Shown here one piece after another: positions 1 to 32,000 of a stretch of DNA of 32,000 nucleotides. Location of the stretch: positions 240,001 to 272,000 of the forward strand of contig OZ246420.1 of NCBI GenBank assembly GCA_965231145.1, given 5' to 3'. Positions within the stretch are counted from its first letter, which is position 1, and each line of letters starts with the position of its first letter. The position numbers and the translations under genes are program-made. Under the pieces are notes generated by a model. The model had not been told where the DNA came from. It ran no database searches and saw only the letters and a list, made by a program, of their open reading frames with translations. This DNA comes from Candidatus Saccharimonadota bacterium. GTDB lineage: Bacteria > Patescibacteriota > Gracilibacteria > Absconditabacterales > Absconditicoccaceae.

Positions 1-69
1 GCTGGAAAGCAGAAAGGAAAATTGCTGTATGGATTAATGCGTGGGTTAAGAGATGGTTTTAGCCTGTAA
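1..69 (+). CDS. 3' end of an upstream gene (partial, 22 codons, ends TAA)
   Basis: Frame 1 is open from the window edge to TAA at 67-69 (AGKQKGKLLYGLMRGLRDGFSL*). It is too short to identify. Confidence 0.2.
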   Translation, partial: AGKQKGKLLYGLMRGLRDGFSL

Positions 70-77
70 TAGATGTC

Positions 78-2585: not shown

Positions 2586-2708
2586 AATCTTCTGTTTTGA
2601 TTTGTACCCCTATAATAGCAAGCATGACCAATAAGTCAAATATAAAATCTGTTGCATTTAGGGGGCTTTTTTCTATCATTCTAGTCACGTCCACAGCAGA
2701 CAACTTGT

Positions 2709-2784
2709 GGGTTTGTAGCTCAGTTGGTAGAGCAAGAGCCTCTTAAGCTCCTGGTCCGGGGTTCGAATCCCCGCAAACCCACCA
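2709..2784 (+). tRNA. tRNA-Lys (anticodon CTT), CCA encoded
   Basis: Cloverleaf read by eye. Acceptor GGGTTTG/CAAACCC, D-arm GCTC-AGTTGGTA-GAGC, anticodon loop CTCTTAA, T-arm CGGGG-TTCGAAT-CCCCG, then ACCA. Confidence 0.93.
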
Positions 2785-2841
2785 TTAAAAAGATATTGAA
2801 AATAATCATTATACAGGAGGTTATCATTGAGAAAATACTAT

Positions 2842-2913
2842 AGGGCCATAGCTCAGTGGTAGAGCGGGAGTCTCCAAAGCTCCGCGTCGGGAGTTCAATC
2901 CTCTCTGGCCCTG
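2842..2913 (+). tRNA. tRNA-Trp (anticodon CCA), no encoded CCA end
   Basis: Acceptor AGGGCCA/TGGCCCT, D-arm GCTC-AGTGGTA-GAGC, anticodon stem GGAGT/GCTCC with loop CTCCAAA, T-arm GGGAG-TTCAATC-CTCTC, discriminator G. Confidence 0.9.
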
Positions 2914-2918
2914 AACGA

Positions 2919-2944
2919 AATAACTTGCAAGAGTTATTTTTTTG
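2919..2944 (+). terminator. rho-independent terminator after the tRNA pair
   Basis: AATAACT/AGTTATT stem with loop TGCAAG, followed by a T-run. Confidence 0.6.
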
Positions 2945-2989
2945 TTATAAAAAATAATTAATTTCAATTTAAGGCGAAATCCTTATATA

Positions 2990-3053
2990 GCAGTTAGATT
3001 ATAGATATTAGATTTTAGCACCTGCTAACATCTACATGCTAAAATCGCATTGC
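2990..3053. repeat. TAGAT-rich palindromic intergenic element, copy A
   Basis: GCAGTTAGATTATAGATATTAGATTTTAGCA (2990-3020) matches the reverse complement of 20144-20174 at 29/31 positions. An internal 10-bp stem pairs GATTTTAGCA with TGCTAAAATC. Confidence 0.55.
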
Positions 3054-3074
3054 TTTTAATAGGTAAGAAAAGAG

Positions 3075-9732: not shown

Positions 9733-9758
9733 AAAAAAAAAGAGCATGTCTAGCTCTT
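9733..9758 (-). terminator. rho-independent terminator overlapping the stop of the 9750-11135 gene
   Basis: AAGAGC/GCTCTT stem (9740-9745 / 9753-9758), followed on the minus strand by a T-run (A-run 9733-9740 on plus). Confidence 0.55.
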
Positions 9759-11135
9759 CTTTTTGACTTTTATCATTCCATCAAACACCTCTGTGCTGAA
9801 TGCATTGCCCTGAAGGTCACTCTCTTTTTCCTGGCGAACATATGGGCCGAGAAGCTGCTGTGCATCATAATCAGCCACTAGCTCGCGTTCTTCGTCTGTC
9901 ATGTTGTCGAGGAGCACAAAAGCCATCCTGAGAATGTCTTGTTTGCTATGGTCAACCTTCCAGAAATCATAGTTCCAGAGCTGAGCAATCATGTCTTCTA
10001 AGTTATCGTGCTCGAGATGTTCGTTAATCAGCCTGAAAGCTTTGTGTAATTTCTCGTCTGTATGTGTGTCGAAGAGGGCAGTTTTTGGTCCGCGTAAGAG
10101 ATTTTCGATATGTGTTATATCTTCATCGCTGATCTTGAGAAGATGGTAGTACACAGATCCATTGATCTTTGTAATGACGTTTTTTACCTCACGAATAGCA
10201 GCATCCATTTTTTCATTACGAATTTCATTACTATCTTCCAATGTTTTCGGTGTGCTTAAAAGACGAGTCTGTGTCACTAAATTGGTATAGACGTTATTGA
10301 GATAATGGAATAGACCCAGCTTATCACTTATGTTTTCTAACATATGCTTTTTTTGTTTTCGTGGAGTAGTGTGATTAATTATTAAGCGTCAGAAAAGAGT
10401 TTCTTTATAGATTGTTTCTAGATCTCTGTCGTCGATCTCTCTTGCTGTTCCATCTCTTTTTTGAAAAATCTGTTCTACTTTTTCCCCAGCTCGCTTATCA
10501 ATGCTTGCTGCTCTTTTCCCATTTTGTAACTCTTCTACTTGTTTGGTCATATTTGTCATGTTTCCCTTGTGAGAGAGAGCTTGGGTATTTTCTTTTCTCA
10601 GATCTATAAGCGTTTTATAAGATCTCTGGTGCGCAGAAAATGCAAGATATTCGGGAGAGACAATCATTTCATTATAGTCTTTTATGGCTTTGTTATAATG
10701 CTCAACGTTCCCATATTGAAGATCAGCCATAAATTCAGTCATCTTTTCGACGTTGTATTCTAATTGCGCAAATTTCTTTAAAATAGCTTCTTTTATGTCG
10801 TTTCAATCACAGTATTTTTTGAGAGCACTAATGCTTTTATTGTACATATAAATTTCCTTTGTGAGAGTTTCACGTTCTGCTTCTAGCTTCCCTTTTTCAG
10901 TGAGACATCTTTCGATTTCGCTCGCAATAAAGCTTCATATGCTTGTATGGTTTTCACCAATAATTCTTTGTTGTTCTTGTTGAAGACATTGGCGTATGAG
11001 GGTGCGAGCTTGATCGATAATTTCGGCACCCCTAGAAAAATTTCATTGTAAAAATTCATCCATCGGAAGAGTTGAGTAGATGGAGTTGAGTATAGTGCCA
11101 TTCTCATATCTGTACTTTGCGAGGTGTCCGTACAT
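9750..11135 (-). CDS. hypothetical coiled-coil-rich protein, 461 aa if TGA=Gly; two ORF-sized units bridged by TGA at 10389-10391
   Basis: Codon-by-codon reading of the minus frame (low coordinates divisible by 3) gives ATG at 11133-11135 and no TAA/TAG until TAG at 9750-9752. ORFs 10389-10742 and 9750-10343 share this frame. There are 4 in-frame TGA. Confidence 0.45.
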
Positions 11136-11203
11136 AACAAATACTATTAGTAAGAGCGAATATTATACAATAATACGACAATATATCAATGTTTTTGAAA
11201 TGT

Positions 11204-28459: not shown

Positions 28460-28936
28460 ATGTCTATTGTTCATTTTGTAGTAAAAGGTACAGATAAAGA
28501 CACAATAAACTTAATACATAAGGAATGTGAGGGGGCGTCTTTTACTCCTCATATTGTGTATCACGGTGCTGTATCTTTCCGGGGAAGACATGATTTTAAT
28601 CTCTTTTCCGCGAATAATGAAATATATGAACTGCCTATAAAAGATTATGGCATAATGAGGTCGCTCCATACGAACTCCAGCATTCTGCAAACACAACTGA
28701 TACAATCAACGTATCCGTTGGTAGGCTGTATTGGTAGAGATATAAAGAATATATGGGCAGGACCATCAGTAGCCACTAATATTATTGGTAGAACATTAAT
28801 CTTATTCGAAGATTGTCCTACGTTGGCGCCTTGGATAAAAGCAACTGAAAGATATCTTGATCGTTTCAAGGCTACTATTAAGAGTGCGCAATCAGTAGAA
28901 CATATTATTAATGATCTTAAAATGGGGAACGTATAA
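28460..28936 (+). CDS. hypothetical protein, 158 aa
   Basis: Intact ORF with no TGA that ends TAA. It has its own promoter-like signal and terminator. I recognise no motif. Confidence 0.5.
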   Translation: MSIVHFVVKGTDKDTINLIHKECEGASFTPHIVYHGAVSFRGRHDFNLFSANNEIYELPIKDYGIMRSLHTNSSILQTQLIQSTYPLVGCIGRDIKNIWAGPSVATNIIGRTLILFEDCPTLAPWIKATERYLDRFKATIKSAQSVEHIINDLKMGNV

Positions 28937-28961
28937 GTTCCTCTTTTTTTATACAAAAAAA

Positions 28962-28991
28962 CCATCCGCGCGCTTCATGGGATGGATTTTT
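28962..28991 (+). terminator. rho-independent terminator after the 28460-28936 gene
   Basis: CCATCC/GGATGG stem (28962-28967 / 28980-28985) followed by ATTTTT. Confidence 0.55.
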
Positions 28992-29089
28992 GAAGGAAGA
29001 AAGGTAGTTGTCTATACTACATCCATATTGGTAAGCTGTTCACATAACTACTTACATGTCAGTTCTTATAATATGTCGCTGTGCTTGTC

Positions 29090-29540
29090 CTGATCTGATC
29101 GCTCAGATTGACTTGCGCATCGGATGAGTTGTTAAGGCCCATGCAATGGTATACATTTGATAGTCGTGCTAAAAAAGTAGTTAGACTTCTCTAGTAGAGG
29201 CATTATCACGTAGTATACGAACCACCTACGTTTTAAGGGTAGTGGGTATCTAGTTTTTAAGGCTAGATTTGAGGCATTTATCTACAGTGAAGTAGATAAC
29301 GTGTAGCATGATTTCTATCTTTCTCCCTAAGAGAGACACTGTCGTGTAGAGCCAAGCTCGCAGATTCGAGTGAGGGGTTTGTGTCCTCAGAAATCGAAAG
29401 TGGTCTGATATACCCTTGGTACAGACGATAGACTACTCTAAAGTACGTGTAGAAGGTTTTATGTATATCATATACATAGCAGTGCCTGTCTTAGGAAGAA
29501 AAATATGTGTATTTTTCTTCTTCTCGTGGAGACAGAGAGA
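29090..29540. other. stop-dense, hairpin-rich non-coding segment; candidate structured RNA or long leader
   Basis: No frame stays open beyond about 50 codons even with TGA as sense. Hairpins lie at 29093-29108, 29248-29268, 29278-29299 (perfect 8 bp), 29460-29478 and 29495-29520 (11 bp), with an outer stem 29486-29491/29530-29535. Confidence 0.3.
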
Positions 29541-29755
29541 CATGTGAAAGAACTTATTGCGTATTTATTATATACCTGAGTGTCGGATTTGTCAAATTTT
29601 TACGCTTCTCATTTTATAGTAGTCATACTGCTTATACACATTATATCATTTTTTCTTGTTTTTTGGCTTTTAATAGCCTGTTTGCTTGCTATAAAATCTT
29701 GATATGGCAGCATTTTTTTTTATTACTTAGTTCTTAGTATATAACACAATGGAAT

Positions 29756-32000
29756 ATGAAGATAAGTAAGCCATCAACTTTCTTCGGTCGGGCATCATTA
29801 GGTGTTTACTGTTTTCAAATATTTTTTGCGCTACTCATTACTGTCATGCCGAGTATGACAGAAAAGGCATATGCAGCCGTACCGTCGCCTATGTACTTAC
29901 TAAAGTTTAATTATGACTTCTATGATTATTCTCGTAACGAAAGGCATGGTGTTCCTGGTGCGACAGCAACTATTATTACTGATCCTACTCGCGGTAAGGT
30001 GTTAAATCTCAATGGTACTGCCAATACAAGTGTAGTGACGATACAGAACACTCTGCCAGCAAGCTATACAAAAGCTGCGTGGGTAAAATTTGGTACAACC
30101 AATAATGGCTCATATAGTATTTTATCAAATGGAACAACACCTTCTTCAAGTCCAGATTTTTTTTGGGTCTCCACTGGCACATATGGATGATCAGCTATCC
30201 TGGGTCTCAAGGCTGGTCCTATAACGGCTGGTAATAATGCAGTGTGGAGTACAGGAGCATTTCCTACAAATACTTGGACGCATGTCGCAGTTACTTTCGA
30301 TGGTTCTACTAAACAGTACAGACTCTATCAAAGTGGTGTGTTAGTCGGCCTGGCTACCGGTACTTCTTCGCATGCAAGTACTGCTCAGGCTATTGGAGCT
30401 TATGCGACTACTCCTTCTGCAAATACCTTTAATTGGACAGGACAGTTAGACGATGTTCAGTTGTGGGATAGTGTATTAACAGAGGCTCAGATAGGAGAGG
30501 TTATGAATCAAAATAATGGCGATGGTGTCACTCCTGCTGTTCCTGATTTCCCTACATCACTAGAAGCTTTTGCATACGATGCCAATGCCGTTTATCTTAC
30601 TTGGACTGGGGTGGGAGCTACACCAGTAGTAACAGACTATCAGATAGAGTATAAGATAAACACAGGTTCTACTTGGAACGTATTTTCTGATTCGGTGAGT
30701 ACAAGTACGACAGGGCTTGTGACGTGATTGATCAACAATCTTGTCTATGATTTCAGAGTGTCGGCTATCAATGCTAGCGGAACGTGACTTCCAAGCACTG
30801 TAGTGTCGTGAACTGCAGTACCCTTACCGGAGCCACAATTTCTTCTTCGTTTTGAAGACACATATGACGATGTTTCGTCTCATGCAAATCACGGTACTGC
30901 TACAGGAGCAATAGCAATAGTTACTGATGGAATCCGTGGCAAGGTAGCTCGTTTTATTGGTTCTATAGGTAATTATGTGACTGTTAATGTTCCCTTGGGA
31001 ACGACAGGATTTACCAAGGCGGCATGGATATATATTCCAGTTGGTACAACTATGAGTGCTCGTAATATTATCTCGAATAGCCCGTATGGAGGAAGTAACT
31101 CCAGCTTTCTTTGGGTAGATAGTTCAAAATTACAAGTTGGTCATTTCTCAGGAGCCGCGGCTCCGATCTTTGCTGCTGACCCTGCTAATATGACTTCGGG
31201 ATCCTGGGCGCATGTTGCTGTAACTTATCAGCCAGCATTGAAAAAATATATGCTTTATAGAAATGGAGCGCTTGTTGCCAGTGGCTATTCTATTCAAAAT
31301 CCAAATCCAAGTACAGGAACTATTATCTGAGCATATAATACAACCGCTGTTACATTTTCTGGATTTATGGATGATGTTGAAATGTGGAATAGCGCATTAA
31401 CTCCTGCTCAGATTCAATTAGTCTATGAGGGTAATACGTGAGTTCCGGTAGGCGTACCAGTTGCTCCTGCTAATTTTACTGGTACTACAGCAAGTAGTAA
31501 TAAAGCTACGTTAATCTGGTCGTGAGTGTCAGCTATTTTACCGGTAACTGACTATCAAATAGAGTATAAAATCAGTACCTGATCAACGTGGACGGTCTTT
31601 TCTGATGGAGTAAATACAGGTACAAGTGTCGTTGTTACAGGTCTGACGACCAATCTCTCATATGATTTTAGAGTGGCAGCGGTCAATTCTGCTGGTACTG
31701 GAGCAGTGACAAATGTTGTATCTCTCTCGCCAATTGTTGTTTCTGTGCCTCAGCCTCAATTTCTCCTGGGATTTGAAGGAAATTATGAAGATATGTCTAT
31801 CAATAGAAACAATGGAATAGCGACATGAACGCTTCCCATTATTACCGATGGCACTCGTGGGAAAGTAGTCAATATCAATGGTGTTGTAGGTAATTATGTT
31901 TGATTAAATGCCTCTCTCAATGTTTCGGGATTTACCAAAGCTGCATGGGTATATGTGGTGCCTGGTACGAATGTGGCTGCGCGTAATATATTGTCCAATG
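29756..32000 (+). CDS. giant secreted/surface protein with repeated LamG-like (Laminin_G_3) + fibronectin type III modules, 5' partial (at least 748 codons, about 10 TGA-Gly)
   Basis: ORFs 29756-30190, 30242-30727 and 30977-31330 share one frame and are joined by TGA. There is an N-terminal signal/TM (GVYCFQIFFALLITVMP). LamG_3 hallmarks are WTHVAVTFDG..YRLYQSG and LDDVQLWDSVLTEAQI. The Fn3 hallmark is VTDYQIEYKI..GL..YDFRVSAINASGTG. The module period is about 910 nt and the frame is still open at the window end. Confidence 0.85.

Follow-up and report, generated by a model that had tools for sequence, protein, structure and literature searches.

The window analysed here, a 32-kb stretch of DNA, contains an 819-nt gap (28937-29755) between the gene of a 158-aa protein (28460-28936) and the giant LamG-Fn3 surface-protein gene that begins at 29756. 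The first-pass annotation had singled out this gap as non-coding and anomalously long, and both descriptions hold up. Our analysis indicates that it probably houses a free-standing minus-strand gene for a large structured non-coding RNA (ncRNA), a reading to which we give a probability of roughly 0.8. In a greedy gene map drawn under a code that reads TGA as sense, no spacer exceeds 191 nt except the gap and the 489-nt spacer at 2586-3074; the claim that all the other spacers measure about 200 nt or less is therefore correct for most of them but not for the latter. Since the spacer at 2586-3074 carries two tRNA genes, tRNA-Lys(CTT) at 2709-2784 and tRNA-Trp(CCA) at 2841-2914, both long spacers appear to be RNA-gene loci. 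As had been described, the centre of the gap is not AT-rich, with a GC fraction of 0.37-0.47 compared with 0.26-0.29 in the last 200 nt.

The transcription signals of the gap are found on the minus strand, although it had implicitly been read on the plus strand. The putative promoter of the RNA (29567-29598, minus strand) is composed of a -35 hexamer TTGACA (29590-29595), a 17-nt spacer and a -10 hexamer TATAAT (29567-29572). This arrangement, running from 29595 to 29567, is the sole 12/12 match to the sigma-70 consensus in the 32 kb, where 0.03 would be expected, and only one further site in the window scores 11/12. The latter promoter-like site, TTGATA-16-TATAAT at 11162-11189 (minus strand), lies just upstream of a 461-codon minus-strand gene (9750-11135). 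Our comparison set consists of four full sequences (the window and its relatives L003, L020 and L024) and one fragment (L017). In all four full copies the hexamers are perfect and 17 nt apart, with four different spacer sequences; the flanks (TTT..AAA, TATAATAA) are invariant, TTTGACAAA and TATAATAA being unchanged around the promoter. The AT-rich last 200 nt, described earlier as promoter-like and leading into the LamG-Fn3 gene, are thus promoter-bearing, but they contain the RNA's own minus-strand promoter besides whatever drives the LamG-Fn3 gene.

From these signals, transcription is predicted to start at about 29560 (+/-2), 7 nt past the -10 hexamer, and a minus-strand RNA of about 611 nt would extend from there to about 28950. 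It would end at its own intrinsic terminator (28954-28991, minus strand), in which CCAUCC-12 nt-GGAUGG (28960-28985) is followed by U7; the minus strand reads TTTTTTTG downstream of CCATCC/GGATGG. A terminator hairpin with a U-tract occupies the equivalent position in all species, with stems that differ among them: CCAUCC/GGAUGG, CUCCUC/GAGGA, CCACAG/CUGUGG, and another in L017 as judged by its fold. Because promoter and terminator sit on the minus strand, the RNA is transcribed away from the LamG-Fn3 gene, and the two genes are divergent.

Because the 158-aa protein upstream is an orphan, we used Obg to reach related genomes. In L003, obtained from a scan of GTDB genomes, Obg is 79% identical by tblastn and 80% by blastp, and the centre of the gap is matched at the syntenic position with an nhmmer E-value of 7e-24; the nhmmer matches to the relatives overall range from 7e-24 to 7e-45. 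L019 and L020, which are one organism, were found by a metagenome scan with the conserved core, and L024 and L025, the contigs of the protein P0122, by a HMMER search with one open frame of the core. In L024/L025 the RNA adjoins the small gene, Obg (82% identical), a SPOUT methyltransferase, trigger factor and YbaB. The contig ends of L017 and L018 contain the 3' end of the RNA (Obg 74% identical in the database search, 75% by blastp). The proposed check for conservation in relatives has accordingly turned out positive, the unit being complete in L003, L020 and L024 and represented by its 3' end in L017. Among the contigs reached via Obg homologues, L014, L016, L021, L022, L023 and L004-L013 show no RNA within reach, and the covariance model found no match in the distant relatives (Obg 38-57%).

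The predicted RNA is best described from its core domain of about 190 nt (29315-29503, minus strand), whose nucleotide identity between species is 76-88%, compared with 71.5% for the Obg gene and 58-64% for the 5' end of the LamG-Fn3 gene. In the core, a helix P1 of about 29 pairs (5' strand 29473-29503, 3' strand 29315-29348) closes a four-way junction with three arms, all on the minus strand: H2 (29406-29470), a long irregular hairpin with the apical sequence AUAGA-GUWG-UCUAU; H3 (29365-29398), with the stems UUCGA/UCGAA and UGAGG/CCUCA and a AUCAAAACC-like loop; and H4 (29349-29359), GAGC-UUG-GCUC. Minimum free energy folding gives the same architecture for the cores of the window, L020 and L003 folded alone, and for that of L024 within its full-length fold. 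In the model-guided alignment of the four sequences (A9), 96.9% of the pair cells hold standard pairs, in comparison with 33-54% when the partners are slid against each other. Both sides have changed in five pairs (7 cells), and the covariation score of 0.164, compared with 0.118 in shuffles, was attained by 2 of 500 of these. The claim of a novel structured RNA is supported by this conserved region, by its common fold with compensatory changes and by the lack of a match in Rfam, described below.

The strand can also be judged from the fold. With the covariance model R1, the sense strand reaches 176-217 bits and the antisense strand 27-36 bits, and the helices contain 14 G.U cells versus 3 A.C cells, which favours the minus strand. 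Both strands of the gap RNA locus fold better than shuffled sequences, the minus strand more so: the whole-RNA z-scores of the sense and antisense strands are -4.48 and -2.89 in the window, -6.84 and -5.05 in L020, and -5.46 and -4.81 in L003. Taken together, the locus has the sequence properties of an independent ncRNA gene, with its own conserved promoter, its own intrinsic terminator and a conserved structure with compensatory changes, the last being modestly supported by four sequences.

These data bear directly on the earlier suggestion that the gap is a long leader of the LamG-Fn3 gene, i.e. a plus-strand 5' leader or riboswitch-like cis-regulator. The element does lie directly upstream of the gene at 29756, its plus strand folds better than chance (z = -2.89 as given above), and a LamG neighbour is common to the window and L020. 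However, the minus strand carries the U-tract terminator and the only strong promoter, no promoter-like site on the plus strand upstream of the element scores above 9/12, and both the G.U to A.C ratio (14:3) and the covariance-model scores favour the minus strand. The suggested check of whether the region always accompanies LamG-Fn3 gave a negative answer as well: on the promoter side, L003 has a co-directional 167-codon gene with its own terminator, which lies as an extra terminator upstream of the RNA promoter, and L024 has a pilin-like gene. The latter, divergent from the RNA promoter (1-70, reverse strand), begins with MKKPAFNAFTLIEMLIVIVIIG, which looks like the N-terminus of a type IV prepilin. 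Because the promoter-side neighbour differs in L003 and L024, the element is not tied to LamG-Fn3, and we consider a leader function highly improbable.

The coding potential of the gap deserves similar attention. It had been described as stop-dense in all frames; its non-coding status stands, but with TGA as sense it contains open stretches of 70-100 codons and the stop density is not uniform. The stretches comprise 100 (29442-29744, plus strand), 89, 80, 78 and 70 codons, and could represent a decayed pseudogene or one or more small-protein genes, such as the 79-codon hydrophobic open reading frame (ORF) at 29505-29744 on the plus strand, which includes two in-frame TGA codons, or short ORFs on the minus strand. 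A protein in the library, P0122, also matches one frame of the core. This single library match is an unnamed 105-aa singleton, an ORF call over the L024 RNA itself, and the 79-codon ORF overlaps the promoter region, whose length and sequence are not conserved in L020. Between species, 1-nt indels shift the frames, and no start codon is conserved. A start codon is also lacking for the conserved peptide-like stretch QTPHS.LRAWL..TVSLLGR, whose frame is changed by upstream 1-nt indels and whose differences are spread about equally over the three codon positions. None of the open stretches in the gap has a Pfam hit, and six-frame peptides of the core matched nothing at E<=10 among 5.8 billion proteins. 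With no Pfam hit, no protein similarity and no conserved frame, the pseudogene alternative raised earlier is unsupported, and a coding origin of the gap seems very unlikely; as far as sequence comparison goes, the RNA is not translated.

The abundant inverted repeats could alternatively belong to a conserved element that acts as DNA, either a protein-binding region or the remnant of a mobile element. The contigs of relatives also break inside the element, which would suit such a reading: three independent assemblies end within the RNA gene, at 7141-7261 in L017, at 3744-3840 in L018 and at position 1 in L019. These breaks could stem from a repeat, from anomalous coverage or from strains that differ in the hairpin hotspots. 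On the other hand, the locus occurs as a single copy at a syntenic position, with neither terminal repeats nor a transposase, and the viral, phage and plasmid collections yielded no match to the RNA. A conserved layout from promoter to terminator, an asymmetry in G.U pairs and compensatory pairs over long distances are all features of an RNA, and we regard a DNA-level element as hardly probable.

Several points nevertheless weigh against an ncRNA gene. Many core pairs never vary, and the interior of H2 and the lower 3' stem cannot be aligned column by column. All sequences come from one narrow clade, in which the Obg proteins are 74-86% identical; with four full sequences and one fragment from such a clade, the covariation support is modest. 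The close relatives L014 (Obg 84%) and L016 (Obg 80%) have no element next to Obg. In addition, the start and the end of the transcript are read from sequence signals, and the ribonucleoprotein (RNP) scaffold proposed below derives from the size of the RNA, its conservation pattern and analogy.

Outside the core, the RNA is a series of conserved and variable elements, all on the minus strand. The 5' leader (29504-29560) contains a conserved CAAUAAGnUC (29544-29559) and most of an 11-bp hairpin (29495-29523) that is absent in L020, L003 and L024 and whose 3' arm overlaps the 5' strand of P1. Downstream of the core, H5 (29278-29299), UUAUCUAC-UUCACU-GUAGAUAA, is found in all four species, and two of its pairs have changed in both partners while remaining paired (A-U to G-C, C-G to U-A). 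It is followed by a block of variable hairpins (29117-29268), an expansion hotspot that contains H6 (29248-29268), H7 (29222-29245) and further hairpins. The block spans about 150 nt in the window and about 75 nt in L020, where an A-U to U-A change keeps the pairing of H6; it is absent in L003 and different in L024. The RNA lengths of 611, about 480, about 427 and about 684 nt reflect hairpins gained or lost at hotspots, which in the window are 29117-29268 and 29495-29523. Three loops of the variable block (29248-29268, 29222-29245 and approximately 29127-29138, minus strand) carry CCUUAA(A)A; elsewhere, a loop of this type occurs once in L020, as CCUCAAAA, and not in L003. These loops may be a repeated binding site or the result of an internal duplication.

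A GNRA-tetraloop domain (29083-29118), GC-AA-GUC..UCUGA-GCGA-UCAGA..GAC-AA-GC, is present in all four species with either GCGA or GCAA as the loop and with a mid-stem change from G-C to A-U in L020; apart from its loop, the hairpin proper (29093-29108) shows a single difference, a one-sided G.U. An 11-nt GNRA receptor was considered at CCUAAG and rejected, because the opposite strand is its plain complement. The extended 3' hairpin (29010-29075) has the apical sequence CAUGUAA-GUAG-UUAUGUG (29041-29058) with a GNRG loop, followed by a conserved GAAC. Its apical stem is conserved, U.G and G.U being replaced by U-A and A-U, and A-U by U-A, and its lower stem is species-specific in sequence and complementary in each fold. 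Just upstream of the terminator, a pyrimidine-rich tail CUACCUUUCUUCCU (28994-29007) is kept in five species including the L017 fragment, and it is complementary to the purine strand AGGGAGAAAG of P1. A helix closing the 5' and 3' ends can be drawn for each species, at positions that are not homologous, and was omitted from the model. CsrB-like repeated GGA loops, as read from the sequences, are not conserved. We also dropped mimicry of an anti-Shine-Dalgarno sequence by the tail, a role that is unlikely because the genes here show no Shine-Dalgarno motif: in the 25 nt upstream of each of 32 predicted starts, no such purine motif is visible, and translation initiation in this organism appears to be Shine-Dalgarno-independent.

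The individual hairpins reported in the first-pass annotation are all present in the window at the coordinates given there, namely ATCTGA-tcgc-TCAGAT at 29093-29108, ATCTAG/CTAGAT at 29248-29268, the TTATCTAC..GTAGATAA stem at 29278-29299, the palindrome at 29460-29478 and the 11-bp hairpin at 29495-29520. Their fate in the relatives differs: those at 29093-29108 and 29278-29299 recur in all four full-length copies and that at 29248-29268 in L020 only, whereas the palindrome, the 29495-29520 hairpin and the CGTGTAG heptamer are specific to this genome. The heptamer does occur three times in the 32-kb window, where 1.44 copies would be expected, and always inside the gap. Its copies (29300-29306, 29343-29349 and 29446-29452) fall within a 153-nt stretch of the RNA gene, and none of the three is conserved in the relatives. 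In the common fold, the bases of the palindrome and of CGTGTAG pair elsewhere.

The neighbouring genes place the RNA in its genomic and taxonomic context. Only if TGA is taken as a sense codon does the LamG-Fn3 frame (29738-31999) stay open, and the gene (29756-31999, extending past the window) contains 10 in-frame TGA sites, which fall after T or S in the repeats. The protein has a hydrophobic segment at its N-terminus, and its Laminin_G_3 modules alternate with Fn3 modules. The gene evolves fast, identity to the L020 orthologue being no more than 58-64% over the 5' 900 nt. Obg has four in-frame TGAs (26832, 26907, 27159 and 28227) on conserved glycines of glycine-rich motifs, which indicates genetic code 25 (UGA = Gly) and thereby places the organism among the Gracilibacteria/Absconditabacteria-type bacteria of the candidate phyla radiation (CPR). 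Between Obg and the RNA lies a gene for a small protein of about 160 aa, which belongs to either of two families that are unrelated to each other: one in the window (28460-28936), L017 (6670-7140) and L019, the other in L003 (11507-12091), L014 (9282-9761), L024 (922-1413) and L021. The 158-aa protein of the window matches only itself among 5.8 billion proteins and has no Pfam domain. Its gene converges on the RNA gene and has a separate terminator (28924-28950, plus strand), GGGGAAC-gtataa-GTTCCTC followed by T7, which forms the boundary and lies outside the RNA; such a back-to-back arrangement of terminators recurs in L017 and L024.

To evaluate whether the RNA belongs to a described family, we compared it with Rfam 15. 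At gathering thresholds, the only hits in the whole window are the two tRNAs, leaving the gap RNA without a family. Permissive scans (E<=10) of the RNAs of the window, L003 and L020 returned chance matches only, none of them common between species, and listed no RNase P (RF00010/RF00011), transfer-messenger RNA (tmRNA), signal recognition particle (SRP) RNA, 6S, OLE, ROOL, GOLLD, HEARO or raiA. A very diverged housekeeping RNA (RNase P RNA, 6S RNA, tmRNA or SRP RNA) might escape such models. RNase P RNAs of CPR bacteria have been reported below the Rfam cut-offs, with helices that are extended or missing (PMC8172020), which is why we also looked for the signature motifs themselves. A consensus promoter, a terminator and variable insertions of helices are characteristic of stable housekeeping RNAs, and no RNase P, 6S, tmRNA or SRP gene is found elsewhere in this 32 kb. 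However, the best matches in the RNA to the RNase P motifs CR-I (GGAAAGUCC) and CR-V (ACAGAAnCCGGCUUA) have 2-7 mismatches, no better than in shuffled sequences. ARAGORN reported no tmRNA in it, and its matches to the T-loop and the CCACCA end, as well as to the SRP domain IV motif (GGAA loop, AGCA), are at the level of chance. Its four-way junction differs from the 6S rod with a large central bubble, and no 6S-family model in Rfam gave a hit. The earlier statement that the region matches no tmRNA, RNase P or SRP RNA thus agrees with Rfam 15, ARAGORN and the motif tests, and a housekeeping RNA in disguise seems unlikely.

The ncRNA gene does resemble several known RNAs in its general form. OLE RNA (RF01071) is likewise large (about 610 nt), multi-stemmed and lineage-restricted, has a conserved core with variable peripheral stems and is of the putative RNP-scaffold type. 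OLE occurs in anaerobic Firmicutes, in an operon adjoining its partner gene oapA. The gap RNA, in contrast, belongs to another phylum, has no covariance-model match to OLE at E<=10 and forms a unit of its own, complete with promoter and terminator, beside which no conserved partner gene is located. ROOL (RF03087) and GOLLD (RF01998) share with it the large ornate form, the many hairpins, the GNRA loops and the variable insertions. Both are often prophage-borne or close to tRNA genes, whereas the gap RNA lies on the chromosome in a syntenic order (Obg, small gene, RNA), with no viral or phage match and no match to either model. With 6S RNA it would have in common the sigma-70 promoter and, as proposed here, the character of an abundant regulatory RNA that acts through its shape, but it is 2-3 times longer, is built around a four-way junction and matches no 6S-family model. 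With the CPR RNase P RNAs it shares a position below the Rfam thresholds, helix extensions and losses, and a gene form with promoter and terminator (PMC8172020), but it lacks the P4 pseudoknot signature (CR-I, CR-V) and gave no alignment to RF00010/RF00011 at E<=10. We found no ncRNA of comparable kind described in the literature for Gracilibacteria or CPR bacteria. The RNA is a new family within the known kind of large structured bacterial ncRNAs.

How the RNA acts can be suggested tentatively. Transcription from the consensus promoter would yield an RNA in which the core of about 190 nt is followed by a conserved hairpin, the species-variable hairpins, the GNRA domain, the 3' hairpin and the pyrimidine tail. 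Because of the consensus promoter and the compact fold, it would presumably accumulate as a stable and abundant species and act in trans. Its working centre might consist of the invariant junction, the H3 loop and H4 and would most likely serve as a platform for a protein partner, and the variable hairpins would be dispensable expansions. The purine strand AGGGAGAAAG has two possible and mutually exclusive partners, the 5' strand of P1 and the CUUUCUUCCU-like 3' tail, and a choice between them might act as a conformational switch. By analogy, our best guess is a stable trans-acting RNA scaffold of an RNP.

Large, highly structured bacterial RNAs without an assigned function are rare, and the few that have been solved (RNase P, OLE, ROOL, GOLLD) proved to be ribozymes, unusual RNPs or assemblies. 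UGA-recoded bacteria of the Gracilibacteria/Absconditabacteria type are uncultured, live on other cells and have streamlined genomes. An important role of the RNA in such an organism is suggested by the fact that it takes up 2% of the 32 kb, has the best promoter of the region and possesses a core more conserved than the essential GTPase gene. Its promoter-to-terminator anatomy, together with the covariance model, provides a handle for metatranscriptomic and biochemical work. We see an even chance that it is the first member of a class of large structured RNAs (about 430-680 nt) that has not been described before and is confined to the lineage of CPR bacteria that has recoded UGA to glycine, with an invariant four-way-junction core that does a specific biochemical job. 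If so, the core could act as a ribozyme, bind a ligand, self-assemble or serve as the scaffold of an RNP, and it would perform this job in cells whose genomes of about 1 Mb can afford very little non-coding DNA.

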